Shown in pieces: positions 1 through 11,560 of a stretch of 11,560 bases of DNA. The position numbers were made by a program, and so were the translations under genes. How positions within the stretch are numbered: position 1 is the stretch's first letter; each line of letters opens with the position of its first letter. The DNA is from a virus (taxonomy: Duplodnaviria; Heunggongvirae; Uroviricota; Caudoviricetes). The stretch covers positions 1 to 11,560 of IMG/VR virus record IMGVR_UViG_2693429774_000009. One strand, 5' to 3'. The notes beneath the pieces are model-generated. The model worked only from the letters and a program-made list of their open reading frames with translations. It made no database searches and was not told the DNA's origin.

Positions 1-280
1 TTCAAACCACTGAAAAAGAATAGGCGTTTTTTCATCAATGACCTTTAACTCATATTCCTTTCCGGCAAAAGAAACCGTTTGACAGGGTGAACTCTGCACT
101 ATATTTGCTGAGTTATGGAAAGTTGTCCTTATCGGTGAAAGCATTCGTCGTCCTGTTTATCCATATTTTCTTCACAACTAACTCTTTAATCTATTAATTA
201 TATTGGCATACTCAACCACAAAACCTCCAGCAGTTTTGCCATCTTTGCTTTCCTAACAAACATCACCATGACATGACAAC

Positions 281-306
281 AAAAACCGGAGCCGGACTCC
301 GGTTTT
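281..306. terminator. Possible bidirectional rho-independent terminator (stem CCGGAG/CTCCGG, loop CCGGA, A-run 5' and T-run 3')
   Basis: Perfect 6-bp GC-rich inverted repeat at 286-291/297-302 flanked by AAAAA (281-285) and TTTT (303-306). Confidence 0.35.
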
Positions 307-354
307 GTGAAGCTGTCGGGTTACTTCATCCCGCCAATATTTTCCCACGTCCCG

Positions 355-561
<207 letters not shown>

Positions 562-599
562 TTATTGTGCGCTGCGGTGCGCGGTGAAATACCGGTACA

Positions 600-627
600 A
601 AAATGCCCCGCATCTGCGAGGCATTTT
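600..627 (-). terminator. Hairpin immediately downstream of the Rz stop, candidate terminator for the late transcript
   Basis: 8-bp perfect inverted repeat AAAATGCC (600-607) / GGCATTTT (620-627) with inner CGCA/TGCG pairing; lies about 40 nt past Rz stop codon on the minus strand. Confidence 0.3.
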
Positions 628-664
628 CCTGAAAGTCACTTGTTAAATTTCAGTGAAATTAAAA

Positions 665-1081
665 TTATTTTAAGCACTGCGTCCTGATGTATTCCTGCAG
701 GTAGTTAACCTGCGCGGTTATCTTGTCGATTCCACCTCGGAGACGGTAATAATTGAGTTCAGCATCTGCTGTAAGTCCTGGGCTTTCTCCATCGCCCATG
801 CTGCTGGCTCCGGTCGTTGACTTTGCACAGGTGGCGGAGACTTGCAGGCGCTTACGCCCAGCAGAAACATCAGCACGGAGACTTTCGATAGTCGCATTAG
901 CATCAGCAAGCTCCTTTGTGTATCTGGCGTCGAGTTCTGCTACATCACGTTGACGCTTCTGCATGTCAGCGATGATGGATGTGGCTTTGTCGCGCTGGTC
1001 TTTGTAGGCGATGGCGTTATCACGGTAATGATTAACAGCCCATGACAGGCAGAGGATGATGCAAATAACCAGAGCGGAGAT
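665..1081 (-). pseudogene. Rz: Rz i-spanin, 5'-truncated (no start codon; in-frame stop at 1094-1096)
   Basis: Minus-strand frame [32 protein letters not shown]...[22 protein letters not shown]... matches lambda Rz from residue about 8 onward; homology to lambda ends at about 1081 and no ATG precedes it. ORF-track entry 665..964 is the internal-Met part. Confidence 0.75.
718..909 (-). CDS. Rz1: Rz1-like o-spanin lipoprotein embedded in the +1 frame of Rz
   Basis: 63-aa [38 protein letters not shown]...: signal peptide, lipobox V-S-A-C, proline-rich mature part, fully nested inside Rz as in lambda. Confidence 0.6.
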
Positions 1082-1151
1082 AGAGGAACAGAGTTAAAAA
1101 GCCGGAAGCGGAATCAAATCACAGGATGACCATCTGCCAGTGGCAGGTCAT

Positions 1152-1178
1152 AAAAAAAAGGCTGCGCAATGCGCAGCC
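1152..1178 (-). terminator. Rho-independent terminator for minus-strand transcripts leaving the cargo cassette
   Basis: + strand AAAAAAAA (1152-1159) then GGCTGCGC (1160-1167), loop AAT, GCGCAGCC (1171-1178); on the minus strand this is an 8-bp GC stem followed by a U-run. Confidence 0.5.
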
Positions 1179-1607
1179 AGAACTCACAAGGAAAATGATA
1201 AAAGGAATAACACTAGTGATGTACGCATGGCGCCTCCCGCTAAGTTCTGCAATGATCAAACAGAACTCGCTACGTGCCCTTAAAACTCGATCATTTAGCC
1301 CCTCCAAGGAGGATTCACCATGCGGTTGATTTTTTAATAAACAGTAAACAAAAAAGTCAAGAATTATTCATTCTGTTCTTTCATCATCGGCCACAGCAAT
1401 ACCACAATGCCGCAGACCAGAGCGCCATCAGTCAGTACCAACATTATCCTGCTGGTGAAATCCATCATCACCATCACTAAAAGCAGGATCACAACAGCAA
1501 GCAGACACAGTTTATAAAACAATGTTCAGAAAACGCATTCAGCATGCCTAAGGTTCTATTCCTACGAATAGCCAACTTGCAACTTAAAATATTATTTATG
1601 CAGCCAA

Positions 1608-2366
1608 TTAAATTCTGGTCCTTACAATATCAACCTGAAGATTCTTATATTGTGCTGATTGATAAATGACAAACCTTTTACTACCTGCATTGAAAGAAGT
1701 AGACAAAACCAGACAATTATCATAACGAGCAAGAACATAATACCAACCATCATTATAATTAATCATTTCATATTCTTTCTTAAACTGTGGTTTGTAATAT
1801 CCTGTCAGAAATGAAAAAAGCCAAAAATATGCCACAAAAGCAATCATCACAATCTCAAAAAAATGTTTTTTTATAAATGGCTTATCATAGAAGCATGATA
1901 CCGATAAAAATCGCCCATAAGATCTTATCGAAATTGTAACCGCCAGCGCAATCGCTGCTGACAGTAGCAAAAGAGGTACCTGAATCTTCTGTCTCAATAT
2001 AGAAAACTCAATAATTGCCGGCACAAACAATAATTCCACAGCAAAATAAAGGCGAAATACATTTAGCTCTTGCATAGAATGTTTTCTTTTCACTGCGAAA
2101 AAGAATACAACACCAATACCCCAACCGATAAGAAATATAGCAATGACGATAACTGCAAAAAATAAACTTCTGGCAACATCATCAACACCTGCACCTACAA
2201 TCCACCATGGGAAGCCGTAGTAAAAAGAAGTACCCCATCCATAGAAATAAGCACTCCCCCATCCAAGGCATCCCATGTAGGCAATAAAAAGTGAAGAACT
2301 CCTGAGCAGCGCACCATCCTTCATAACCACCCCAATACAAGATGATAACATTGGCTTACAACTCAT
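1608..2366 (-). CDS. Hypothetical polytopic inner-membrane protein (about 5 predicted TM helices, aromatic-rich, about 55-aa soluble C-terminal tail); late-operon cargo
   Basis: 252-aa ORF, AT-rich relative to flanking phage genes; hydrophobic segments e.g. SLFFAVIVIAIFLIGWGIGVVFFFAV, VPLLLLSAAIALAVTISI, FEIVMIAFVAYFWLFSFLTGYY; located directly downstream of Q and the pR'-like promoter where lambda has S/R. Start may be the internal Met at 2324 (GGGGTGG RBS). No family recognised. Confidence 0.6.
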   Translation of the reverse strand: MSCKPMLSSCIGVVMKDGALLRSSSLFIAYMGCLGWGSAYFYGWGTSFYYGFPWWIVGAGVDDVARSLFFAVIVIAIFLIGWGIGVVFFFAVKRKHSMQELNVFRLYFAVELLFVPAIIEFSILRQKIQVPLLLLSAAIALAVTISIRSYGRFLSVSCFYDKPFIKKHFFEIVMIAFVAYFWLFSFLTGYYKPQFKKEYEMINYNDGWYYVLARYDNCLVLSTSFNAGSKRFVIYQSAQYKNLQVDIVRTRI

Positions 2367-2532
2367 AACAAAAGCAATTCAATGCCGTCAAGAGGTTACA
2401 GGCTAAAAAAACTCTATTACATAGCAGCCAGCATGTTTACCGTACAAGTACAACTCAGGGCATAAAAACTACTCGGCGGCAGGTTATTGAGACTCATCAA
2501 TGACATGTAAAAAACGCCCATTATTGGTGTCA

Positions 2533-2561
2533 AGTTTCCCCAAAGTTATTCAAAAAGTCAA
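2533..2561 (-). promoter_or_regulatory. pR'-like late promoter (Q-utilisation region) reading leftward into the cargo cassette
   Basis: Minus strand reads TTGACTTTTTGAATAACTTTGGGGAAACTTGACACC, closely resembling lambda pR' TTGACTTATTGAATAAAATTGGGTAAATTTGACTC; -35 TTGACT at 2556-2561, -10 homologue 2533-2538. Homology to lambda is lost a few tens of bp downstream. Confidence 0.45.
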
Positions 2562-2603
2562 TATTATGCCGTTAATATGTTGCCATCCGTGGCAATCATG
2601 GCG

Positions 2604-3227
2604 CTAACGTGTGATCGCATTCAAAATGTTGTCTGCGATTGACTCTTCCTTGTGGCATTGCACAACCAGAGCGTCATACAGCGGCTTAACAGTGCGTGAC
2701 CAGGTGGGTTGGGTAAGGTTTGGGATTAGCATCGTCACAGCGCGATATGCGGCGCTTGCTGGCATTCTTGAATAACCGACGCCTTTACATCTTCCGCACT
2801 CTTTCTCAGCAACTCTCCCCCACAGCTCTGTTTTGGCTATATCAACCGCACGGCCTGTACCGTGGCAATCTCTGCATCTTGCGCCCGGCGTAGCGGCACT
2901 ACGGCAATAATCCGCATAAGCGAATGTTGCGAGCACTTGCAGTACCTTTGCCTTAGTATTTCCTTCAAGCTTTGCCACGCCACGGTATTTCCCCGATACC
3001 TTGTGTGCAAATTGCATCAGATAGTTGATAGCCTTTTGTTTGTCGTTCTGGCTGAGTTCGTGCTTACCACAGAATACAGCCATTCCGAATCCGGCTTGTG
3101 ATTGCGCCATCCCCATAGCAGCCATCACATCAGTACCGGAAAGAGAGTCAGAAGCCGTGGCCCGTGGTGAGTCGCTCATCATCGGGCTTTTTGGCGAATG
3201 AAATTTAGCTATGCTTTCGAGTCTCAT
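2604..3227 (-). CDS. Q: Late-gene antiterminator Q (lambda-type, 207 aa)
   Basis: [94 protein letters not shown]... is essentially lambda Q including the Cys-rich zinc-binding region. Confidence 0.95.
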
Positions 3228-3586
3228 GCGCCTTCTCCCTGTACCTGAATCAATGTGAGGTTTCCGCAGAACACTGCGCCAGTATCGATATACATCTGGT
3301 TGGCAAATTTGAGTGGTTTCACTGCTGGCGTATGACCAAAGATGAACGTGTCCGCGCCTTTGATTTCTTTCACGATCCCGTCTTGTGAGTTGCTGATTCG
3401 TTCGCGGTTCCAGATTACCTGCTGATGATCAACTGGCTTTCCAAACTCGTATTTATCACAAGGATAGCAATCCCCCAATTTGAGGGATGTTTTATCCCTC
3501 GTTTTAGGGGATTTTCCCTCGTTTTGAGGGATACACCATTCTGAGATGTTTTTATTTGGTCCAAACATGCCGCCTTGCTGCTTGAT
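3224..3586 (-). pseudogene. In-frame deletion fusion: internal fragment of replication initiator O (ori iteron segment) joined to the C-terminal half of a lambda-type Ser/Thr protein phosphatase (orf221/PP-lambda)
   Basis: Minus-strand frame [42 protein letters not shown] (lambda O, iteron-encoded) continues directly into [78 protein letters not shown] (metallophosphatase C-terminus); ends 4 nt into Q start as in lambda. P, ren and nin genes are absent. Confidence 0.7.
3471..3532. repeat. ori-lambda iterons (three O-binding repeats; fourth iteron and the AT-rich region deleted)
   Basis: Three tandem copies of the reverse-complemented lambda iteron: TCCCCCAATTTGAGGGA (3471-3487), ATCCCTCGTTTTAGGGGAT (3494-3512), TCCCTCGTTTTGAGGGAT (3515-3532); deletion junction falls in the fourth iteron (TATCC at about 3462-3466). 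Confidence 0.8.
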
Positions 3587-3751
3587 AAGAGGGATTGGAT
3601 TCCAAAGTTCTCAATGCTGCTTGCTGTTCTTGAATGGGGTGTCGTCGACGACGACATGGCTCGATTGGCACGACAAGTTGCTTCGATTCTCACCAATAAA
3701 AAACGCCCGGCGGCAACCGAGCGTTCTGAACAAATCCAGATGGAATTCTGA
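3587..3751 (+). pseudogene. cII: cII 3' fragment (residues about 44-97) on the inverted segment
   Basis: + strand translation [54 protein letters not shown]-stop matches the lambda CII C-terminus. Confidence 0.8.
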
Positions 3752-3783
3752 GGTTATTACTGGAACTATCAACAGGAGTCATT

Positions 3784-4077
3784 ATGACAAATACAGCAAA
3801 AATACTCAACTTCGGCAGAGGTAACTTTGCCGGACAGGAGCGTAATGTGGCAGATCTCGATGATGGTTACGCCAGACTATCAAATATGCTGCTTGAGGCT
3901 TATTCAGGCGCAGATCTGACCAAGCGACAGTTTAAAGTGCTGCTTGCCATTCTGCGTAGAACCTATGGGTGGAATAAACCAATGGACAGAATCACCGATT
4001 CTCAACTTAGCGAGATTACAAAGTTACCTGTCAAACGGTGCAATGAAGCCAAGTTAGAACTCGTCAGAATGAATATT
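3784..4077 (+). pseudogene. O: O 5' fragment (N-terminal 98 codons of replication initiator O) on the inverted segment
   Basis: MTNTAKILNFGRGNFAGQERNVADLDDGYARLSNMLLEAYSGADLTKRQFKVLLAILRRTYGWNKPMDRITDSQLSEITKLPVKRCNEAKLELVRMNI matches the lambda O N-terminus with its RBS AGGAGTCATTATG; homology stops at 4077. Confidence 0.8.
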
Positions 4078-4206
4078 CCACCTGCTGATCTGCGACTTAT
4101 CAACTCCCACAGCTTCCGCTGTCTTCTCAGTTCCAAGCATTGCGATTTTGTTAAGCAACGCACTCTCGATTCGTAGAGCCTCGTTGCGTTTGTTTGCACG
4201 AACCAT
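4078..4206 (-). pseudogene. cII: cII 5' fragment (first 43 codons) with native RBS
   Basis: Minus strand ATG at 4204-4206 preceded by GGAAATACTTACAT; MVRANKRNEALRIESALLNKIAMLGTEKTAEAVGVDKSQISRW then diverges at the inversion junction and stops after 7 more codons. Confidence 0.8.
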
Positions 4207-4285
4207 ATGTAAGTATTTCCTTAGATAACAATTGATTGAATGTATGCAAATAAATGCATACACCATAGGTGTGGTTTATTTTGAT

Positions 4286-4317
4286 GCCCTTTTTCAGGGC
4301 TGGGATGTGTAAGAGCG
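4286..4317 (-). promoter_or_regulatory. nutR (boxA CGCTCTTAC and boxB GCCCTGAAAAAGGGC) between cro and cII
   Basis: + strand shows reverse complements GCCCTTTTTCAGGGC (4286-4300) and GTAAGAGCG (4309-4317), matching lambda nutR boxB and boxA. Confidence 0.6.
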
Positions 4318-4325
4318 GGAATGTC

Positions 4326-5678
<1,353 letters not shown>

Positions 5679-5728
5679 TCCCCACCTCAATCTCGATAAC
5701 AAAAAAACAAACTATTTTCCGTTTAAAA

Positions 5729-5796
5729 ACAATGGAGTTTGTTTTTCACGCCCCTTTTTACAATATCTCTTGTTTACAACATACAATCTTCCTTGT
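5729..5796. promoter_or_regulatory. Left operator OL1-OL3 (434 type) with pL reading rightward toward N
   Basis: ACAATGGAGTTTGT (5729-5742), ACAATATCTCTTGT (5760-5773), ACAATCTTCCTTGT (5783-5796), all ACAA-N6-TTGT; possible -35 TTTACA at 5773-5778. Confidence 0.7.
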
Positions 5797-5842
5797 AATT
5801 TTAAGCCATCAGCAGGACGCACTGACCACCATTGAAGGTGAG

Positions 5843-5872
5843 GCTCTTAAAAATTAAGCCCTGAAGAAGGGC
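5843..5872 (+). promoter_or_regulatory. nutL (boxA-like GCTCTTAA and boxB GCCCTGAAGAAGGGC)
   Basis: GGCTCTTAAAAATTAAGCCCTGAAGAAGGGC matches lambda nutL boxA/boxB, located in the N leader. Confidence 0.65.
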
Positions 5873-6029
5873 AGCATTCAAAGCAGAAGGCTTTGGTGTG
5901 TGTGATACGAAACGAAGCATTGGCCGGAAGTGCGAATCCGGATTAGCTGCCAATGTGCCATTGCGGGGTGTTTTCGTTCAGGACTACGACTCCCACACAC
6001 AACCAAAGCTAACTGACAGGAGAATCCAG

Positions 6030-6353
6030 ATGGATGCACAAACACGCCGCCGCGAACGTCGCGCAGAGAAACAGGCTCAATGGAAAGCAGCAAATCCCCT
6101 GTTGGTTGGGGTAAGCGCTAAACCAGTTAACCGCCCTATTCTCTCGCTGAATCGCAAACCGAAATCACGAGTAGAAAGCGCACTGAATCCGATAGACCTT
6201 ACGGTGCTGGCTGAATACCACGAACAGATTGAAAGCAACCTGCAACGTATTGAGCGCAAGAATCATCGAGTTTGGTATAGCAAGCCAGGTGAGTTCGGTA
6301 TAACTTGTCAAGGAAGACAAAAGGTTAAAGGGGAATCCATTCCATTGGCATGA
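6030..6353 (+). CDS. N: Antitermination protein N (lambda type, 107 aa)
   Basis: MDAQTRRRERRAEKQAQWKAANPLLVGVSAKPVNRPILSLNRKPKSRVESALNPIDLTVLAEYH... including the arginine-rich boxB-binding motif; ORF-track call 5898.. starts at a spurious upstream Met. Confidence 0.9.
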   Translation: MDAQTRRRERRAEKQAQWKAANPLLVGVSAKPVNRPILSLNRKPKSRVESALNPIDLTVLAEYHEQIESNLQRIERKNHRVWYSKPGEFGITCQGRQKVKGESIPLA

Positions 6354-7231
6354 GGTACGTAATGAAGAAGATTGATTACAAGTCCATACCAAAACCAATA
6401 GACTCAGCATCAGAGCGAAAAAAACACAAAAAAGAGGCTGAAAAATTAGCAAATTATATCAGTTTTATTAGAAACAATGCTCACGGCGATGGCGACAAGA
6501 AGTTGCTTTCAGATGCTCGGACCCAAGCGTTCGGTATACTTCGTAAGCAGATGCAATATCGTCTTCATCCTGGCTACATAATTGAAATTCGCCCTACTGA
6601 AAGACAATTGTTCTTATTAAACTCTGTCTTTGACTTTGTAAACGTAGTTGGAGATCTTATCGACAGGTCTGTAGATAAGGATCCTGATACAAATAGTTTT
6701 CTTCTAACAAATAAAGAATACTTATATGGTAAATTCGGTATAAACGGATGGCAAAAATATGTACGCTTCTTACGTGCATTCGTTGATGCGTATAAAAATT
6801 CCGACATGATTTATACATATTTGCCTGGTGGTGATAATTGTACGCTTTCGGCAGACAATAGAATATTCATACCTGTACTTGGTCTTGGGCTGATTAATGC
6901 AGTAAATGAAAAAGATGTTATAATTGTTAAGCAGTGGCGAAAATATGAGGGATATAGATATCTGCCATGCTTTGATATATTAAAAATACAGAATAAATTC
7001 TATGTAAAAATTAAATATAAAGAAGATATTTTCTTCCTCAGAAAAAACATAGATCTTTTACAAGAACTTTCTGGTACAATAGATGTCATCTTAGGTTCTA
7101 GGTTTATAAAAGAACTGAAAGAAAGCAGGTCTTTCTCTCGTGTAGAGATAAGCGAGTCAGAGTTATGGGGTATATCAAATAATCCTGTAAACCACGCTCA
7201 CCAACGAAACCCAAACAAAAAGTGGTCATAA
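6350..7231 (+). CDS. Hypothetical protein (293 aa; likely true start at 6362 giving 289 aa), AT-rich cargo gene replacing the lambda ral/sieB region
   Basis: Long ORF with ATG overlapping N stop (ATGA) and a second ATG at 6362 preceded by GAGG; markedly lower GC than flanking N and ea10; Lys/Ile/Asn/Tyr-rich, no TM segments, no motif recognised. Confidence 0.6.
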   Translation: MRYVMKKIDYKSIPKPIDSASERKKHKKEAEKLANYISFIRNNAHGDGDKKLLSDARTQAFGILRKQMQYRLHPGYIIEIRPTERQLFLLNSVFDFVNVVGDLIDRSVDKDPDTNSFLLTNKEYLYGKFGINGWQKYVRFLRAFVDAYKNSDMIYTYLPGGDNCTLSADNRIFIPVLGLGLINAVNEKDVIIVKQWRKYEGYRYLPCFDILKIQNKFYVKIKYKEDIFFLRKNIDLLQELSGTIDVILGSRFIKELKESRSFSRVEISESELWGISNNPVNHAHQRNPNKKWS

Positions 7232-7373
7232 CCCGCTCAGGCGGATTTCATTTTCACGCAAACAACAGAATAAACACAGCGCTGTGTATTCATTCCAACG
7301 AGTGAATACACGGAGCAATGTCGCTCGTAACTAAACAGGAGCCGACTTGTTCTGATTATTGGAAATCTTCTTT

Positions 7374-7400
7374 GCCCTCCAAGATGAGGGCGATTTTTTA
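7374..7400 (+). terminator. Putative rho-independent terminator between the cargo ORF and ea10
   Basis: GCCCTC (7374-7379) loop CAAGAT, GAGGGC (7386-7391) followed by GATTTTTTA. Confidence 0.35.
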
Positions 7401-7419
7401 TCTGTGAGGATATGAACAG

Positions 7420-7788
7420 ATGTCAAACATCAAAAAATACATCATTGATTACGACTGGAAAGCATCAATAGAAATTGAAATCGACCATGACGTAATGACA
7501 GAGGAAAAACTTCACCAGATTAATAATTTCTGGTCAGACTCTGAATACCGACTCAATAAACACGGCTCTGTATTAAATGCTGTATTAATCATGCTGGCGC
7601 AACATGCTCTGCTTATAGCAATTTCAAGCGACTTAAATGCATATGGTGTTGTGTGTGAGTTCGACTGGAATGATGGAAATGGTCAGGAAGGATGGCCTCC
7701 AATGGATGGTAGTGAAGGAATAAGAATTACCGATATCGATACATCAGGAATATTTGATTCAGATGATATGACTATCAAGGCCGCCTGA
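7420..7788 (+). CDS. ea10: Ea10-like protein (lambda early gene, 122 aa)
   Basis: MSNIKKYIIDYDWKASIEIEIDHDVMTEEKLHQINNFWSDSEYRLNKHGS... recalled as lambda Ea10; position upstream of cIII matches lambda. Confidence 0.8.
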   Translation: MSNIKKYIIDYDWKASIEIEIDHDVMTEEKLHQINNFWSDSEYRLNKHGSVLNAVLIMLAQHALLIAISSDLNAYGVVCEFDWNDGNGQEGWPPMDGSEGIRITDIDTSGIFDSDDMTIKAA

Positions 7789-7860
7789 GCGCGGCGTTAC
7801 CGCATACCAATTACGCTTCACTCGAGGCGTTTTTCGTTATGTATAAATAAGGAGCACACC

Positions 7861-8025
7861 ATGCAATATGCCATTGCAGGGTGGCCTGTTGCTGGCTGCC
7901 CTTCCGAATCTTTACTTGAACGAATCACCCGTAAATTACGTGACGGATGGAAACGCCTTATCGACATACTTAATCAGCCAGGAGTCCCAAAAAATGGATC
8001 AAACAATTATGGCTATCCAGACTAA
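7861..8025 (+). CDS. cIII: CIII, FtsH inhibitor stabilising CII (54 aa; below ORF-track size cutoff)
   Basis: ATG at 7861 after AAGGAG; translation [54 protein letters not shown]-stop matches lambda CIII. Confidence 0.85.
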   Translation: MQYAIAGWPVAGCPSESLLERITRKLRDGWKRLIDILNQPGVPKNGSNNYGYPD

Positions 8026-8137
8026 ATTCACTATCGCCACTTTTATTGGCGATGAAAAGATGTTTCGTGAGGCCGTCGACGCTTATAAAAAATGGATATT
8101 AATACTGAAACTGAGATCAAGCAAAAGCATTCACTAA
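7994..8137 (+). CDS. kil: Kil (host killing / FtsZ inhibitor, 47 aa)
   Basis: Internal Met of ORF 7868..8137: [47 protein letters not shown] matches lambda Kil; overlaps cIII 3' end as in lambda. Confidence 0.8.
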
Positions 8138-8508
8138 CCCCCTTTCCTGTTTTCCTAATCAGCCCGGCATTTCGCGGGCGATATTTTCACAGCTATTTCA
8201 GGAGTTCGGCCATGAACGCTTATTACATTCAGGATCGTCTTGAGGCTCAGAGCTGGGCGCGTCACTACCAGCAGATAGCCCGTGAAGAGAAAGAGGCAGA
8301 ACTGGCAGACGACATGGAAAAAGGCCTGCCCCAGCACCTGTTTGAATCGCTATGCATCGGTCATTTGCAACGCCACGGGGCCAGCAAAAAAGCCATTACC
8401 CGTGCGTTTGATGACGATGTTGAGTTTCAGGAGCGCATGGCAGAACACATCCGGTACATGGTTGAAACCATTGCTCACCATCAGGTTGATATTGATTCAG
8501 AGGTATAA
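8092..8508 (+). CDS. gam: Gam, RecBCD inhibitor (138-aa long form; short form would start at 8212)
   Basis: ...[60 protein letters not shown]...[10 protein letters not shown] matches lambda Gam. Confidence 0.9.
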
Positions 8509-8513
8509 AACGG

Positions 8514-9299
8514 ATGAGTACAGCACTCGCAACGCTGGCAGGGAAGCTGGCTGAACGTGTCGGCATGGATTCTGTCGACCCACAGGAACTGATCACCACT
8601 CTTCGCCAGACGGCATTTAAAGGCGATGCCAGCGATGCGCAGTTCATCGCATTGTTGATCGTCGCCAACCAGTACGGCCTTAATCCGTGGACGAAAGAAA
8701 TTTACGCCTTCCCTGATAAGCAGAACGGCATCGTTCCGGTGGTGGGCGTTGATGGCTGGTCCCGCATCATCAATGAAAACCAGCAGTTTGATGGCATGGA
8801 CTTTGAGCAGGACAATGAATCCTGTACATGCCGGATTTACCGCAAGGACCGTAATCATCCGATCTGCGTTACCGAATGGATGGATGAATGCCGCCGCGAA
8901 CCATTCAAAACCCGCGAAGGCAGAGAAATCACGGGGCCGTGGCAGTCGCATCCTAAACGGATGTTACGGCATAAAGCTATGATTCAGTGTGCCCGTCTGG
9001 CCTTCGGATTTGCTGGTATCTATGACAAGGATGAAGCCGAGCGCATTGTCGAAAATACTGCATACACTGCAGAACGCCAGCCGGAACGCGACATCACTCC
9101 GGTTAACGATGAAACCATGCAGGAGATTAACACTCTGCTAATCGCCCTGGATAAAACATGGGATGACGACTTATTGCCGCTCTGTTCCCAGATATTTCGC
9201 CGCGACATTCGCGCATCGTCAGAACTGACACAGGCCGAAGCAGTGAAAGCTCTTGGATTCCTGAAACAGAAAGCCACTGAGCAGAAGGTGGCAGCATGA
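8514..9299 (+). CDS. bet: Bet (Red-beta single-strand annealing protein, 261 aa)
   Basis: [72 protein letters not shown]... matches lambda Bet. Confidence 0.95.
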
Positions 9300-9976
9300 C
9301 ACCGGACATTATCCTGCAGCGTACCGGGATCGACGTGAGAGCTGTCGAACAGGGGGATGATGCGTGGCACAAATTACGGCTCGGCGTCATCACAGCTTCA
9401 GAAGTTCATAACGTAATAGCAAAACCCCGCTCCGGAAAAAAGTGGCCTGACATGAAAATGTCCTACTTCCACACCCTGCTTGCTGAGGTTTGCACCGGTG
9501 TGGCTCCGGAAGTTAACGCTAAAGCGCTGGCCTGGGGAAAACAGTACGAGAACGACGCCAGAGCCCTGTTTGAGTTCACTTCCGGCGTGAATGTTACTGA
9601 ATCACCGATCATCTATCGCGACGAAAGTATGCGTACCGCCTGCTCTCCAGATGGTTTATGCAGTGACGGCAACGGCCTTGAACTGAAATGCCCGTTTACC
9701 TCCCGGGATTTCATGAAGTTCCGGCTCGGTGGTTTCGAGGCCATAAAGTCAGCTTACATGGCCCAGGTGCAGTACAGCATGTGGGTGACGCGAAAAGATG
9801 CCTGGTACTTTGCCAACTATGACCCGCGTATGAAGCGTGAAGGACTGCATTATGTCGTGGTTGAGCGGGATGAAAAGTACATGGCGGGTTTTGACGAGAT
9901 GGTGCCGGAGTTCATCGAAAAAATGGACGAGGCACTGGCTGAAATTGGTTTTGTATTTGGGGAGCAATGGCGATGA
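9296..9976 (+). CDS. exo: Lambda exonuclease (Red-alpha, 226 aa)
   Basis: [65 protein letters not shown]... matches lambda Exo with a few substitutions; 4-nt overlap with bet. Confidence 0.95.
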
Positions 9977-10155
9977 AGCATCCTCACGATAATATCCGGG
10001 TAGGTGCGATCACTTTCGTCTACTCCGTTACAAAGCGAGGCTGGGTATTTCCCGACCTTTCTGTTATCCAAAATCCACTGAAAGCCCAGCGGCTGGCTGA
10101 GGAGATAAATAATAAACGAGGGGCTGTATGCACAAAGCATCTCCTGTTGAGTTAA
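9967..10155 (+). CDS. Small hypothetical protein, lambda orf60a-like (62 aa)
   Basis: ORF overlapping exo stop (ATG...TGA coupling), [62 protein letters not shown]; recalled as the small ORF following exo in lambda, identity not verified. Confidence 0.55.
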
Positions 10156-10242
10156 GAACGAGCATTGAGATGGCACATATGGGCGCAGATAGCACATGCA
10201 GACGTAACCAATATTCGAATTGAAGAACTGAAAGAACACCAA

Positions 10243-10262
10243 GCCGCCTGATGGCGGTTTTT
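10243..10262 (+). terminator. Putative rho-independent terminator upstream of xis
   Basis: CCGCC (10243-10247) loop TGAT, GGCGG (10252-10256) followed by TTTTTT. Confidence 0.4.
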
Positions 10263-10290
10263 TCTTGCGTGTAATTGCGGAGACTTTGCG

Positions 10291-10509
10291 ATGTACTTGA
10301 CACTTCAGGAGTGGAACGCACGCCAGCGACGCCCAAGAAGCCTTGAAACAGTTCGTCGATGGGTACGCGAGTGCAGGATATTCCCTCCTCCGGTTAAGGA
10401 TGGAAGAGAGTATCTGTTCCACGAATCAGCGGTAAAGGTTGACTTAAATCGACCAGTAACAGGTAGCCTTTTGAAGAGGATCAGAAATGGGAAGAAGGCG
10501 AAGTCATGA
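10291..10509 (+). CDS. xis: Excisionase Xis (72 aa)
   Basis: MYLTLQEWNARQRRPRSLETVRRWVRECRIFPPPVKDGREYLFHESAVKVDLNRPVTGSLLKRIRNGKKAKS matches lambda Xis; 23-nt overlap with int as in lambda. Confidence 0.93.
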   Translation: MYLTLQEWNARQRRPRSLETVRRWVRECRIFPPPVKDGREYLFHESAVKVDLNRPVTGSLLKRIRNGKKAKS

Positions 10510-11560
10510 GCGCCGGGATTTACCCCCTAACCTTTATATAAGAAACAATGGATATTACTGCTACAGGGACCCAAGGACGGGTAAAGAGTTTGGATTAGGC
10601 CGAGACAGGAGGATAGCAATCACTGAAGCAATACAGGCCAATATTGAGTTACTCTCAGACAGCGGACGCAAATCACTGATAGACAGAATTAAAGGCGGTG
10701 ACGCAATCACTCTTCATGTGTGGCTTGACCGATATGAAACAATCCTCACCGAAAGGGGGATCAGGCCGAAAACTCTACTCGACTACGCCAGCAAAATCAG
10801 GGCAATCCGAAGAAAATTGCCGGACAAACCGCTCACTGACATATCAACGAAAGAAGTGGCAGCAATGCTAAACACCTACGTAGCAGAAGGTAAAGCAGCT
10901 TCCGCAAAATTAATCAGGTCAACCCTTGTTGACGTTTTTCGTGAAGCAATAGCCGAGGGGCATGTGGCAACGAATCCGGTAACAGCAACCCGTACAGCAA
11001 AGTCAGAAGTAAGGCGCTCAAGGCTGACAGCTAATGAGTATGTCGAGATTTACCATGCAGCCGAACCTCTCCCTATCTGGCTAAGGCTGGCGATGGATTT
11101 GGCCGTCGTTACAGGGCAGAGAGTCGGCGATTTGTGCAGAATGAAATGGTCAGACATAAACGACAACCATCTTCACATTAAACAGAGTAAAACAGGGGCT
11201 AAACTCGCCATTCCGCTAACGCTAACGATTGACGCGCTCAATATCTCATTGGCTGATACACTACAGAAATGCAGGGAGGCCAGCAGCAGTGAAACTATAA
11301 TCGCATCAAAGCATCACGATCCGCTTTCCCCGAAAACAGTATCAAAGTATTTTACAAAGGCGAGAAATGCATCTGGCCTCTCATTTGATGGAAACCCGCC
11401 AACATTCCATGAACTGCGTAGCCTGTCAGCGAGGCTATACCGGAACCAGATTGGCGATAAGTTTGCTCAACGTCTTCTCGGGCATAAATCAGATTCAATG
11501 GCGGCGCGGTATAGGGACAGCCGTGGACGGGAATGGGACAAAATTGAAATCGACAAATGA
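10487..11560 (+). CDS. int: Tyrosine integrase Int (357 aa), lambda-family; stop codon is the last triplet of the window
   Basis: MGRRRSHERRDLPPNLYIRNNGYYCYRDPRTGKEFGLGRDRRIAITEAIQANIELL... N-terminal arm-binding domain identical to lambda Int; catalytic motifs (R...HELRSL...LLGH...Y) present; central region diverged from lambda Int. Confidence 0.95.
   Translation: MGRRRSHERRDLPPNLYIRNNGYYCYRDPRTGKEFGLGRDRRIAITEAIQANIELLSDSGRKSLIDRIKGGDAITLHVWLDRYETILTERGIRPKTLLDYASKIRAIRRKLPDKPLTDISTKEVAAMLNTYVAEGKAASAKLIRSTLVDVFREAIAEGHVATNPVTATRTAKSEVRRSRLTANEYVEIYHAAEPLPIWLRLAMDLAVVTGQRVGDLCRMKWSDINDNHLHIKQSKTGAKLAIPLTLTIDALNISLADTLQKCREASSSETIIASKHHDPLSPKTVSKYFTKARNASGLSFDGNPPTFHELRSLSARLYRNQIGDKFAQRLLGHKSDSMAARYRDSRGREWDKIEIDK

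Follow-up and report, generated by a model that had tools for sequence, protein, structure and literature searches.

Dual-function sRNAs are an established class of RNAs. A short hydrophobic ORF located in or beside an sRNA gene occurs with such RNAs (SgrS/SgrT; RyhB/RyhP as proposed by Neuhaus 2017) as well as with type I toxins. PasD2 of EPEC E2348/69 has been described as a 172-nt Hfq-dependent sRNA whose identification by RIL-seq was verified by Northern blot analysis (Pearl Mizrahi 2021). According to the RIL-seq data of the same study, its seed UGUGAG recognizes CUCACA(GG) motifs by base pairing, both in core mRNAs and in virulence mRNAs. Among the latter, bfpB, perB, and cesF were reported as contacts of PasD. 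EcOnc13 is named there as the EHEC homologue of PasD, with reference to Tree et al. 2014. In the study of Zhu et al. 2026 (Zhu, Shabalina & Storz), PasD was defined by synteny and related to STnc100, the Gammaproteobacterial prophage sRNA of Rfam RF02076; in phage 2B8, pasD adjoins Q and lies directly upstream of an esterase gene. PasD-type sRNAs were further reported to be enriched in EPEC and EHEC (Zhu 2026).

A second group of relevance are the small membrane proteins of the family DUF3927 (Pfam PF13064; PHROG 1470, 'TciB-like'), which comprise about 52 aa with two helices and a DFTSRIM...GIVVLLWP core. The name 'TciB-like' derives from the P1-type tci locus. DUF3927 relatives are translationally coupled to a gene encoding a TerB-domain protein (tciA-like), and their GTG or ATG start codon overlaps the TerB stop codon. 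We found no demonstrated function for any member of this family.

Here, we analyzed a stretch of 11,560 nucleotides from a virus of the Caudoviricetes (IMG/VR record IMGVR_UViG_2693429774_000009, positions 1 to 11,560), in the following referred to as the window. An initial annotation had noted two short hydrophobic minus-strand ORFs of 36 and 14 aa between a 252-aa membrane gene and a terminator. We conclude that this interval very probably consists of two known adjacent elements, a 52-aa DUF3927/TciB-like gene and the gene for the sRNA PasD2, and that the 14-codon frame arises incidentally from RNA features (Table 1).

Table 1. Features of the PasD2 locus in the window
Feature	Position	Strand	Basis or remark
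Deletion junction	1081..1083	.	PasD-locus homology stops and resumes ~20 nt into Rz (BLAST vs three loci)
PasD2 sRNA gene, 172 nt	1152..1323	-	100% identical to E2348/69 NC_011601 741157-741328
Intrinsic terminator of PasD2	1152..1178	-	8-bp GC-rich stem with AUU loop (1160-1178), U8 tail (1152-1159)
PasD seed UGUGAG	1183..1188	-	Pearl Mizrahi 2021, Fig. S5 and target motif tables; complementary to CUCACA(GG)
14-codon frame MRTSLVLFLLSFSL (then stop), judged non-coding	1184..1228	-	AUG at 1226-1228
U-rich single-stranded stretch GUUAUUCCUUUUAUCAUUUUCCU	1189..1211	-	Upstream of seed and terminator; P(unpaired) = 0.77
GGGAGG, conserved STnc100/PasD scaffold element	1233..1238	-	P(unpaired) = 0.05
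CCUCCU, predicted partner of GGGAGG	1307..1312	-	MFE and centroid structures; P(unpaired) = 0.03
-10-like element TTAAAA(A)	1331..1337	-	Mapped 5' end of PasD2 follows after 7-8 nt
-35 element TTGACT of the putative PasD promoter	1355..1360	-	Read from the sequence; 4 nt past the DUF3927 stop codon
DUF3927/TciB-like two-helix membrane protein gene, 52 aa	1364..1522	-	Annotated TTG start
252-aa polytopic membrane ORF (context gene upstream)	1608..2366	-	ORF list; PHROG 1521, E = 6e-153, unknown function
Antiterminator gene Q	2604..3227		Pfam Antiterm, E = 6e-58

Results

The upstream ORF and the DUF3927/TciB-like gene

Both minus-strand ORFs were present as described in the initial annotation, and the translations of 1364-1474 and 1184-1228 agreed; the former yields MVMMDFTSRIMLVLTDGALVCGIVVLLWPMMKEQNE followed by a stop codon. 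The 36-aa ORF had been regarded as independent, but its frame is open for 16 further codons upstream, up to a TTG at 1522, and represents codons 17-52 of a 52-aa ORF. Therefore, it is not an independent ORF. The 52-aa protein matched PF13064 with 53 bits (E = 3.4e-14), exceeding the curated cut-off of 25 bits, in an alignment of residues 7-50 with profile positions 7-49 of 53, and a match to PHROG 1470 was also obtained (E = 2.5e-17). The ORF is annotated as DUF3927/TciB in RefSeq (WP_000499454.1) and in the record of phage 434 (TciB). In all 14 DUF3927 homologues compared, the frame was open and hydrophobic, and M1, K4, L7, and L13 were invariant. The comparison of synonymous and non-synonymous changes that the initial annotation had called for supported coding constraint on the 36-aa frame: compared with diverged relatives, codons 17-52 had dN/dS values of 0.22-0.55. 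Judged by its sequence, the 36-aa ORF is part of a real small hydrophobic membrane protein, a 52-aa member of the DUF3927/TciB-like group. Thus, of the small membrane peptides suggested earlier, the 36-aa part could be assigned to such a protein, while the 14-aa frame is located within PasD2.

The TTG codon at 1522 is not preceded by a Shine-Dalgarno (SD) sequence, and dN/dS for codons 2-16 was 1.1-1.9 against the TerB-linked subtype, as calculated on only ~45 sites. Therefore, an internal start of the DUF3927 gene is possible. The real product might accordingly be a 36-aa protein starting from ATG 1474, the coupled start having been lost by recombination: in contrast to the relatives, which start over the stop codon of the TerB gene, the locus of the window carries the 252-aa membrane ORF in place of that gene. 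However, ATG 1474 is not preceded by an SD sequence either, both the Pfam and the PHROG profile match from residue 7-8 onward, and the invariant residues K4, L7, and L13 fall within the N-terminal part, where helix 1 is hydrophobic and in frame across subtypes. A 36-aa product would be devoid of this conserved first transmembrane helix, one of the two helices of the family, and we consider such a product unlikely. Searches of both membrane proteins (252 aa and DUF3927) by PADLOC and NCBIfam gave no match. A scan of genome contigs for DUF3927 relatives yielded nothing usable, the 52-aa query being too short for confirmation by tblastn.

Identity of the sRNA gene and its context

In alignments, the window equaled PasD2 of E2348/69 at every column across the sRNA, the promoter, and both flanks, including the seed and the terminator, and the upstream neighbours Q, the membrane ORF, and DUF3927 are the same. 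The coordinates of PasD1 and PasD2, including the PasD2 5' end, were taken from Table S6 of Pearl Mizrahi 2021; the Northern probe, the Hfq dependence, the seed, and the targets likewise come from that paper. Positions 1090-1620 of the window were matched at 100% identity by phage 434 and by hundreds of EHEC/EPEC prophages, and identity to phage 2B8 across the pasD region amounted to 98.1%. A small RNA, which the initial annotation had suggested to search for on the antisense strand, does exist at this locus; however, it is encoded on the sense strand and contains the 14-aa ORF.

A TTGA(C/T)T sequence occupied the -35 position in all DUF3927-linked relatives, and among 50 distinct upstream sequences, nearly all contained T(T)AAAA at a constant distance from GCATGG. 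TTGACT and TTAAAA, separated by 17 nt, would represent a sigma-70-type promoter of PasD2. From the identity of gene and promoter to those of E2348/69, we infer that an Hfq-dependent transcript of ~172 nt is formed here as well. At the 3' end, a terminator scan identified the hairpin GGCTGCGC-ATT-GCGCAGCC followed by T8 at 1178-1152, which also occurs in the predicted fold and carries a terminator annotation in phage 434. The UGUGAG seed is thus followed by an intrinsic terminator and its poly-U tail. The U-rich stretch at 1189-1211 is typical of an Hfq-binding module, a concept attributed to Ishikawa 2012 in the reference list of Tree 2014.

The locus is located downstream of the antiterminator gene Q in a lambdoid prophage context, with neighbours as in the E2348/69 prophages PP2 and PP4. 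A 247-aa version of the 252-aa ORF occurs in RefSeq, and the protein is listed as hypothetical or putative membrane protein in phage 434 and E. coli genomes. No LpxR gene is present in the window. The gene that follows pasD differs between loci: it encodes an esterase in PP2, located ~85 nt downstream of the terminator as in phage 434, and a holin in PP4. Unlike in E2348/69, where esterase or holin/lysozyme genes normally follow pasD, the window lacks the holin and lysozyme genes as well as any esterase gene at the 1081-1083 junction, and the locus abuts a 5'-truncated Rz, the remaining fragment of which matches Pfam Phage_lysis; the RNA itself is unchanged by the deletion. A lambda-type pR' is presumably located directly downstream of Q, at ~2520-2560. 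We also considered STnc100/PasD as a pR' leader transcript resembling lambda 6S RNA; this was rejected in view of that position of pR' and because STnc100 in other loci follows the tRNA genes and precedes the esterase gene. PasD-type sRNAs were found in ~12% of complete E. coli genomes (678/5426). They fall into two allele classes of roughly even abundance, with 317 records at ≥99% identity and 361 at 97.1%.

PasD2 is a diverged relative of STnc100

For PasD2, a minimum free energy of -58 kcal/mol was predicted (z = -3.07). In this fold, the AUG at 1226-1228 contributes the 3' side of the closing stem of the 5' domain and is paired with the 5'-terminal GCAUGG. The GGGAGG motif, part of a hairpin in STnc100, is predicted to pair with CCUCCU in PasD. 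The window matched RF02076 over the full length of the model (1-206) with 41.4 bits (E = 7e-8). The same score of 41.4 bits was obtained for authentic PasD2 and one of 37.7 bits for PasD1, compared to 120-132 bits for true STnc100 copies. Since 41.4 bits is below the gathering score of 47 bits, PasD is a diverged relative and not a member of STnc100 by the Rfam criterion. The STnc100 scaffold, consisting of the closing stem and hairpins 1 and 3, was recovered by Alifold in a set of 49 distinct 5' domains, PasD among them. In 48-49 of these, the closing stem was canonical, its 5' strand being fixed by the search pattern. Hairpin 3 displayed compensatory changes (AU/GC/UA covariation), and hairpin 4 is lost in PasD.

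Both RNAs have in common the 5' end GCAUGGUGAAUCC, a closing stem ending in CCAUGC, GGGAGG, and an internal hairpin with covariation; they also agree in promoter spacing and are located between Q and the lysis genes. In contrast to STnc100, PasD has lost 7 nt of hairpin 4 and possesses a shorter hairpin 1 (CCUCC vs CCCCC), a different central part, and its own 3' seed. In phage Evi, DUF3927 is followed by an STnc100 copy with a PasD1-type terminator.

The 14-codon frame within PasD2

As noted in the initial annotation, GGGAGG (1238-1233) precedes the ATG at 1228-1226 at a short distance, which was determined to be 4 nt (CGCC); the terminator stem follows the stop codon after 5 nt (GTTCT) instead of the 6 nt given there. 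The UGA stop codon (1184-1186) is located within the published seed UGUGAG. In the predicted fold, the probability of being unpaired was 0.00 for the AUG and ≤0.05 for both the SD-like motif and the AUG. The predicted cost of opening this start site was 19.7 kcal/mol, compared to 7.5-12.9 kcal/mol for real starts in the window.

We compared 76 distinct relatives, for which the occurrence of GGGAGG (76/76) was the criterion of selection. A start codon following this motif was retained as AUG in 74 and as GUG in one, and was missing in one. The frames that follow are of unrelated sequence, range from 2 to >35 codons, and mostly enter the terminator. In the sister allele PasD1, an additional T (+1) shifts the frame within the 14 codons, and no stop codon occurs on the terminated RNA. 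Two alleles of the frame exist that differ by an indel, and dN/dS is not meaningful here. A lack of conservation in related sequences, named in the initial annotation as speaking against its own proposal, is therefore what the comparison revealed for the 14-aa frame.

The frame consists of 47% T, and T occupies the second position in 9 of the 14 codons; the hydrophobic codons arise because the U-rich stretch at 1189-1211 supplies them. The window contains 288 ATG ORFs of at least 14 codons, compared to 255 ± 13 in dinucleotide shuffles, and about 5 such ORFs with an SD-like motif occur per shuffled window. Thus, the 14-aa ORF alone is not beyond chance, in line with the earlier caution that short ORFs may arise in this way. 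It is the surrounding RNA, and not the frame, whose conservation exceeds chance. Striking is the near-universal retention of the SD-like motif and the AUG across the family; pairing accounts for it, and a second role is conceivable. The burial of the start site is a thermodynamic prediction, and the 5' stem could become open upon binding of Hfq or CsrA or upon pairing with a target.

Discussion

Several alternative functions of the 14-codon frame and its surroundings were considered. PasD2 might be a dual-function sRNA that is also translated from AUG 1228 into the peptide MRTSLVLFLLSFSL. Its strong SD-like GGGAGG 4 nt upstream, the in-frame stop codon ahead of the terminator, and the retention of motif and AUG in 74 of 76 relatives are consistent with such a role. 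In ribosome profiling of EDL933, some STnc100 copies, which may or may not include the PasD homologue, were likewise associated with ribosome footprints at moderately high coverage, with RCV values >1 and up to 3.2. However, the peptide is limited to one allele, as the frameshifted PasD1 accounts for about half of the natural copies, and the frames of the relatives are unrelated and mostly without stop codon. In addition, SD-like motif and AUG are predicted to be paired at the high opening cost given above, the spacing of 4 nt is short, and chance alone should produce a few 14-codon ORFs preceded by an SD-like motif in each window. With both ORF conservation and start accessibility arguing against a coding sRNA, we regard dual function of PasD2 as very unlikely. 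A real gene corresponding to the 62-aa ORF of the phage 434 record (1119-1307, minus strand, 'putative membrane protein') is extremely unlikely at this locus. In OL657226, this ORF is listed together with an RBS, but it reads through the terminator hairpin, lies inside a validated sRNA, and has no Pfam match; the additional T of PasD1 alters its C-terminal half completely.

Type I toxin-like or leader peptides, as proposed in the initial annotation, gained no supporting evidence; the frame is not conserved, and its start is predicted to be buried in a stem. As a leader peptide, the 14-aa ORF would control the terminator at 1152-1178 and hence read-through to the esterase and lysis genes by attenuation. 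The ORF does end just short of an intrinsic terminator, and an esterase gene closely follows in phage 434 and E2348/69 PP2. We rejected a leader-peptide attenuator, to which we assign a negligible likelihood, because of the frameshift between PasD1 and PasD2 and the variable downstream genes; moreover, the predicted fold contains no alternative antiterminator pairing, and in E2348/69 a discrete sRNA accumulates that is bound by Hfq and has trans targets. In lambdoid late operons, read-through is provided by Q. Equally considered was a type I toxin-antitoxin pair in which the adjacent sRNA represses a small hydrophobic toxin, either DUF3927 or the 14-aa peptide. A gene for a small hydrophobic protein indeed adjoins the sRNA gene, and the pair is kept in relatives such as phage Evi. 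Nevertheless, this reading is highly improbable: the sRNA gene is co-oriented with the DUF3927 gene without overlap, the energy of a duplex between PasD and the DUF3927 mRNA was reached by 38.5% of shuffles (RNAduplex, a blunt measure at such lengths) and hence revealed no excess complementarity, and no PADLOC match was obtained. The DUF3927 mRNA is also not among the published PasD targets retrieved, which are core and virulence mRNAs, and relatives couple DUF3927 translationally to a TerB-domain gene rather than to an antisense RNA. With type I toxins and dual-function sRNAs, the locus shares a short hydrophobic ORF within or next to an sRNA; it differs from them by an unconserved frame, a start site predicted to be sequestered, and the lack of an antisense partner.

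We therefore favor two adjacent known elements, which would both reside in the 'moron' region of a lambdoid prophage, between the antiterminator gene Q and the lysis genes; the context of such moron sites is described in general terms in Tree 2014. A sigma-70-type promoter would drive PasD2 as an Hfq-dependent trans-acting sRNA from 1323 to 1152 on the minus strand. Nucleotides 1-99 of PasD2 are predicted to fold into a closed, structured 5' domain, and the 3' part, comprising the U-rich single strand, the seed UGUGAG, and the terminator hairpin with U8, would serve as the module for Hfq binding and target pairing. The putative start codon of the 14-codon frame would then be the 3' strand of the closing stem, its 'RBS' a conserved scaffold motif paired within PasD, its hydrophobic codons the product of the U-rich stretch, and its stop codon a part of the seed. 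The terminator would also stop unmodified transcription arriving from the upstream membrane genes, and passage into the esterase and lysis genes of intact relatives would be limited to Q-modified late transcription. This proposal is based on sequence identity, on family membership, on a frame that is not conserved, and on the predicted structure; expression, Hfq dependence, and targets were established in EPEC E2348/69 and are taken from the literature. Activity of the promoter, absence of translation, and a role of the terminator as a barrier to read-through would be expected in the strain studied here.

PasD2 harbors two SD-like motifs containing GGA, GGAGGGG at 1299-1305 and GGGAGG at 1233-1238, and both are retained together with the AUG in nearly all STnc100/PasD RNAs. 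They might constitute CsrA sites or a decoy for ribosome docking, an idea that we put forward tentatively and consider rather doubtful. In a 2026 preprint, a chimera of the yjbJ-3'UTR and PasD2 was reported as the single most abundant CsrA-bound RNA pair in EPEC. If the idea holds true, PasD-type RNAs would bridge the Hfq and CsrA networks rather than act as simple Hfq-dependent seed-pairing sRNAs.

Both elements of the interval are already known, DUF3927 from Pfam and RefSeq and PasD2 from Pearl Mizrahi 2021 and Zhu 2026. With one ORF being the tail of DUF3927 and the other a chance frame in a validated sRNA, the observation is therefore ordinary and already explained. It nevertheless calls for caution, as the architecture of an Hfq-type sRNA alone, by its closing stem, U-rich Hfq site, seed, and terminator, can mimic an SD sequence, an ATG, a hydrophobic peptide, and a terminator. 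Spurious coding sequences over the PasD sRNA do occur in public records, namely a RefSeq pseudogene and, in phage 434, a 'membrane protein' of 62 aa. Since PasD-type sRNAs are reported to contact virulence mRNAs, their correct annotation matters for pathogen genomics.

The two short reading frames belong to a TciB-like gene and to the sRNA PasD2

The initial annotation placed two small minus-strand ORFs, of 36 and 14 codons, between the 252-aa membrane gene and the terminator. Both translations were reproduced exactly, and GGGAGG is present at 1238-1233, with 4 nt separating it from the ATG (1228-1226) of the shorter frame; the stop codon of this frame lies 5 nt from the terminator stem rather than the 6 nt claimed. 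Neither frame is a gene of its own. The 36-aa ORF belongs to a DUF3927/TciB-like gene, and the 14-codon frame has arisen by chance within the known sRNA PasD2. As the initial annotation had cautioned, short ORFs arise by chance: the window holds 288 ATG ORFs with a length of 14 codons or more, compared to 255 +/- 13 in shuffled sequences, and about 5 of these per shuffled window also have an upstream Shine-Dalgarno (SD)-like motif. We regard the observation as real but ordinary, and both the DUF3927 gene and PasD2 were already known.

Upstream, the 36-aa frame extends over another 16 codons to a TTG at 1522. The resulting 159-nt CDS (WP_000499454.1) is labelled 'TciB' or 'DUF3927 family protein' in phage 434, RefSeq E. 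coli E2865 and E2348/69. Hence, the suspected small membrane protein does exist, but it is longer than was thought and already annotated. Pfam PF13064 covers residues 7-50 of the 52-aa protein (53 bits, cut-off 25) and PHROG 1470 ('TciB-like') residues 8-51, while searches with PADLOC and NCBIfam gave no match for the protein. Phage 434 and prophages in about 680 complete E. coli genomes match window 1090-1620 with 100% identity. All 14 aligned homologues retain M1, K4, L7 and L13 as well as the first hydrophobic helix; dN/dS against diverged relatives is 0.22-0.55 over codons 17-52.

The start codon is the weak point of this assignment. The start codon of DUF3927 relatives, GTG or ATG, overlaps with the stop of a TerB-domain gene; in the window, the 252-aa membrane ORF takes the place of that gene, and the start is a TTG without SD sequence. 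Comparison of the window region 1364-2366 (minus strand) with viral contig L005 (1798-2393, minus strand) showed that the first three DUF3927 codons differ. Between this subtype and the TerB-linked one, dN/dS is at least 1.1 over codons 2-16, a stretch with very few sites. Because of the SD-less TTG, the lost TerB overlap and this ratio, we keep an internal start as a possibility, albeit an unlikely one.

In phage Evi and many contigs (such as the L005 region), DUF3927 is translationally coupled to the TerB-domain gene by a GTGA overlap, and this tciA-tciB-like pair lies directly upstream of the sRNA promoter. Some Escherichia albertii homologues (P0048, P0066, P0071) carry tandem in-frame repeats (LEAGGWR, CGIVGLWD) in the second helix region and reach 73 aa.

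Identification of PasD2

An Rfam scan yielded a full-length STnc100 (RF02076) match at 1149-1353 on the minus strand (41.4 bits, E = 7e-8), below the gathering score of 47. Authentic PasD2 scores 41.4 bits and PasD1 37.7 bits, compared to 120-132 for genuine STnc100 copies. The EPEC prophage sRNA PasD has been described as a structural relative of STnc100 that is located near Q and LpxR and, in phage 2B8, directly upstream of a sialate esterase gene (Zhu, Shabalina and Storz, bioRxiv 2026); identity between the window and the corresponding part of 2B8 is 98.1%. In NC_011601, PasD1 occupies 1060260-1060432 and PasD2 741157-741328; a Northern probe is given for PasD, its stability depends on Hfq, EcOnc13 is its EHEC homologue, and its seed UGUGAG pairs with CUCACA(GG) in targets that include aceE, uspA, yhdW, gltI, coaE, spr, cesF, perB and bfpB (Pearl Mizrahi et al., Sci Adv 2021). 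In an alignment with both E2348/69 loci, the window and PasD2 did not differ anywhere in the sRNA or its flanks. On the basis of this identity, we therefore assign window 1323 to 1152 (minus strand) to PasD2. By the same token, the expression, Hfq dependence and targets reported for E2348/69 most likely apply to the window copy.

Public records contain CDS features over the PasD sRNA that are probably mis-annotations, among them an antisense 132-aa 'hypothetical protein' in the E2348/69 prophage PP4.

The 14-codon frame is probably non-coding

Relative to PasD2, PasD1 has four substitutions and one inserted T; the 45-nt frame contains three of the five changes. Shifted by the insertion, the PasD1 frame continues through the terminator, leaving the terminated RNA without a stop codon. 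The E. coli copies fall essentially into these two alleles, which are of comparable frequency (317 records at at least 99% identity and 361 at 97.1%) and are present in 678 of 5426 genomes. When viral contigs were scanned with a pattern of the conserved 5' end, 76 distinct relatives were obtained. Each of them has GCAUGGUGAAUCC ... GGGAGG ... CCAUGC, whereas their 3' parts are unrelated. GGGAGG is followed by an AUG in 74 relatives, by a GUG in one and by neither in one. The frames starting at this AUG are not related in sequence, vary in length from 2 to more than 35 codons and mostly extend into or through the terminator hairpin. Thus, the frame is conserved neither between the alleles nor among the relatives.

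In the predicted structure, the AUG is in the 3' strand of the stem closing the 5' domain (GCAUGGUG paired with CGCCAUGC). Of 49 distinct 5' domains, 48-49 form this stem with canonical pairs, and AU/GC/UA compensatory changes occur in an internal hairpin. In STnc100, GGGAGG lies in a small hairpin, whereas in PasD this hairpin has lost 7 nt and GGGAGG is predicted to pair with CCUCCU near the 5' end. In PasD2, the SD is predicted to be unpaired with a probability of 0.05 and the AUG with one of 0.00. Opening positions -14 to +16 of the AUG would require 19.7 kcal/mol, whereas 7.5-12.9 would suffice at seven real starts of the window. Uridine makes up 47% of the frame and occupies the second position in 9 of its 14 codons. 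This composition stems from the U-rich single-stranded stretch ahead of the terminator, which the frame spans and which is modelled as belonging to the Hfq-binding module. The stop codon of the frame, UGA, falls within the seed (1183-1188).

PasD2 also contains a second SD-like motif, GGAGGGG (1305-1299), followed by a PasD-specific 4-codon mini-ORF, AUG AUC GAG UUU UAA (1280-1294, minus strand), whose AUG is predicted to be paired (P(unpaired) = 0.06).

A dual function of PasD2 as a coding sRNA could be suspected from some STnc100 copies of EDL933 with ribosome coverage of up to 3.2, values that are not assigned to PasD; with the start site predicted to be closed, we consider this improbable. 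The locus lacks the defining features of both a type I toxin-antitoxin system and leader-peptide attenuation, rendering the former very improbable and the latter even more so. Just as little can be said for the 62-aa ORF of the phage 434 record as a real gene, since the PasD1 insertion wholly alters its C-terminal half and the frame is not preserved in PasD1.

Family modularity and CsrA

The STnc100/PasD family is modular. Among the viral contigs compared (L005-L125), the 5' domain, ~95-125 nt long and with covarying hairpins, is conserved but combined with many unrelated 3' seed/terminator modules (e.g. L014 8599-8788 and L005 1607-1793), and some contigs carry two copies ~470 nt apart. PasD and the phage Evi variant have the terminator and downstream flank in common but not the central part. 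In CsrA RIL-seq, the yjbJ-3'UTR/PasD2 chimera was the most abundant CsrA-bound RNA pair in EPEC, with ~20% of chimeric reads (bioRxiv 10.64898/2026.08.12.744399). The two GGA-containing SD-like motifs of PasD2 are candidate CsrA sites.

Prophage setting and proposed working of the locus

The window is a degraded lambda-like prophage, and the Lambda_thermo match confirms a lambda-like early-left region. Homology with phage 434 and the E2348/69 prophage PP2 ends at 1081 (junction 1081-1083), and 1082-986 matches Rz of PP4 from about the seventh Rz codon. Judged from these matches, the lysis cassette has therefore been deleted: holin, lysozyme and any esterase gene are absent and Rz is truncated. 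None of 5426 complete E. coli genomes contained this exact junction as a contiguous sequence. From the ORF list, the replication/nin region (3224-4176) likewise looks heavily deleted. Directly downstream of Q (~2520-2560, minus strand), TTGACTTTTTGAATAACTTTGGGGAAACTTGAC... closely resembles the lambda pR' late promoter region and is a candidate for such a promoter; if this site is real, late transcripts would start there and cross the membrane genes and PasD.

Features of the window and of records overlapping PasD
Feature	Position	Strand	Evidence or remark
int	10487-11560	+	
exo, bet	between int and cI-type repressor		
cIII thermoregulator	7848-7906	+	Rfam Lambda_thermo, 88.5 bits
cI-type repressor	4645-5277		
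O-like N-terminal fragment, 130 aa	3784-4176	+	ORF list
114-aa fragment	3224-3568	-	ORF list; overlaps Q start codon, directly after O-like fragment
Lambda-type Q antiterminator	2604-3227	-	Pfam Antiterm, E = 6e-58
252-aa membrane ORF	1608-2366	-	PHROG 1521, unknown function
DUF3927/TciB-like CDS	1364-1522	-	
Putative promoter	TTGACT 1360-1355, 17-nt spacer, TTAAAA 1337-1332	-	starts 4 nt past DUF3927 stop codon
Terminator GGCTGCGC-ATT-GCGCAGCC then T8	1178-1152	-	sequence, terminator scan
Rz, 5'-truncated	~665-1082	-	Pfam Phage_lysis, E = 1.3e-34
62-aa 'putative membrane protein' over PasD	1119-1307	-	phage 434 record OL657226
Frameshifted pseudo-CDS over PasD, opposite strand	~1042-1283	+	RefSeq genomes

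The -10-like element lies 7-8 nt from the mapped PasD2 5' end, and of 50 distinct upstream sequences almost all keep it there. The putative promoter after the DUF3927 stop codon would give rise to a 172-nt RNA ending at its own intrinsic terminator. The 5' 99 nt of this RNA are predicted to form a closed domain, and the 3' U-rich stretch, seed and terminator would constitute the Hfq-binding and target-pairing module. The terminator would also halt unmodified transcription arriving from the membrane genes, and in intact relatives the esterase and lysis genes would be reached through it by Q-modified late transcription only. Such an organization corresponds to the classic 'moron' arrangement that has been noted for sRNAs at this very site (Tree et al. 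2014).
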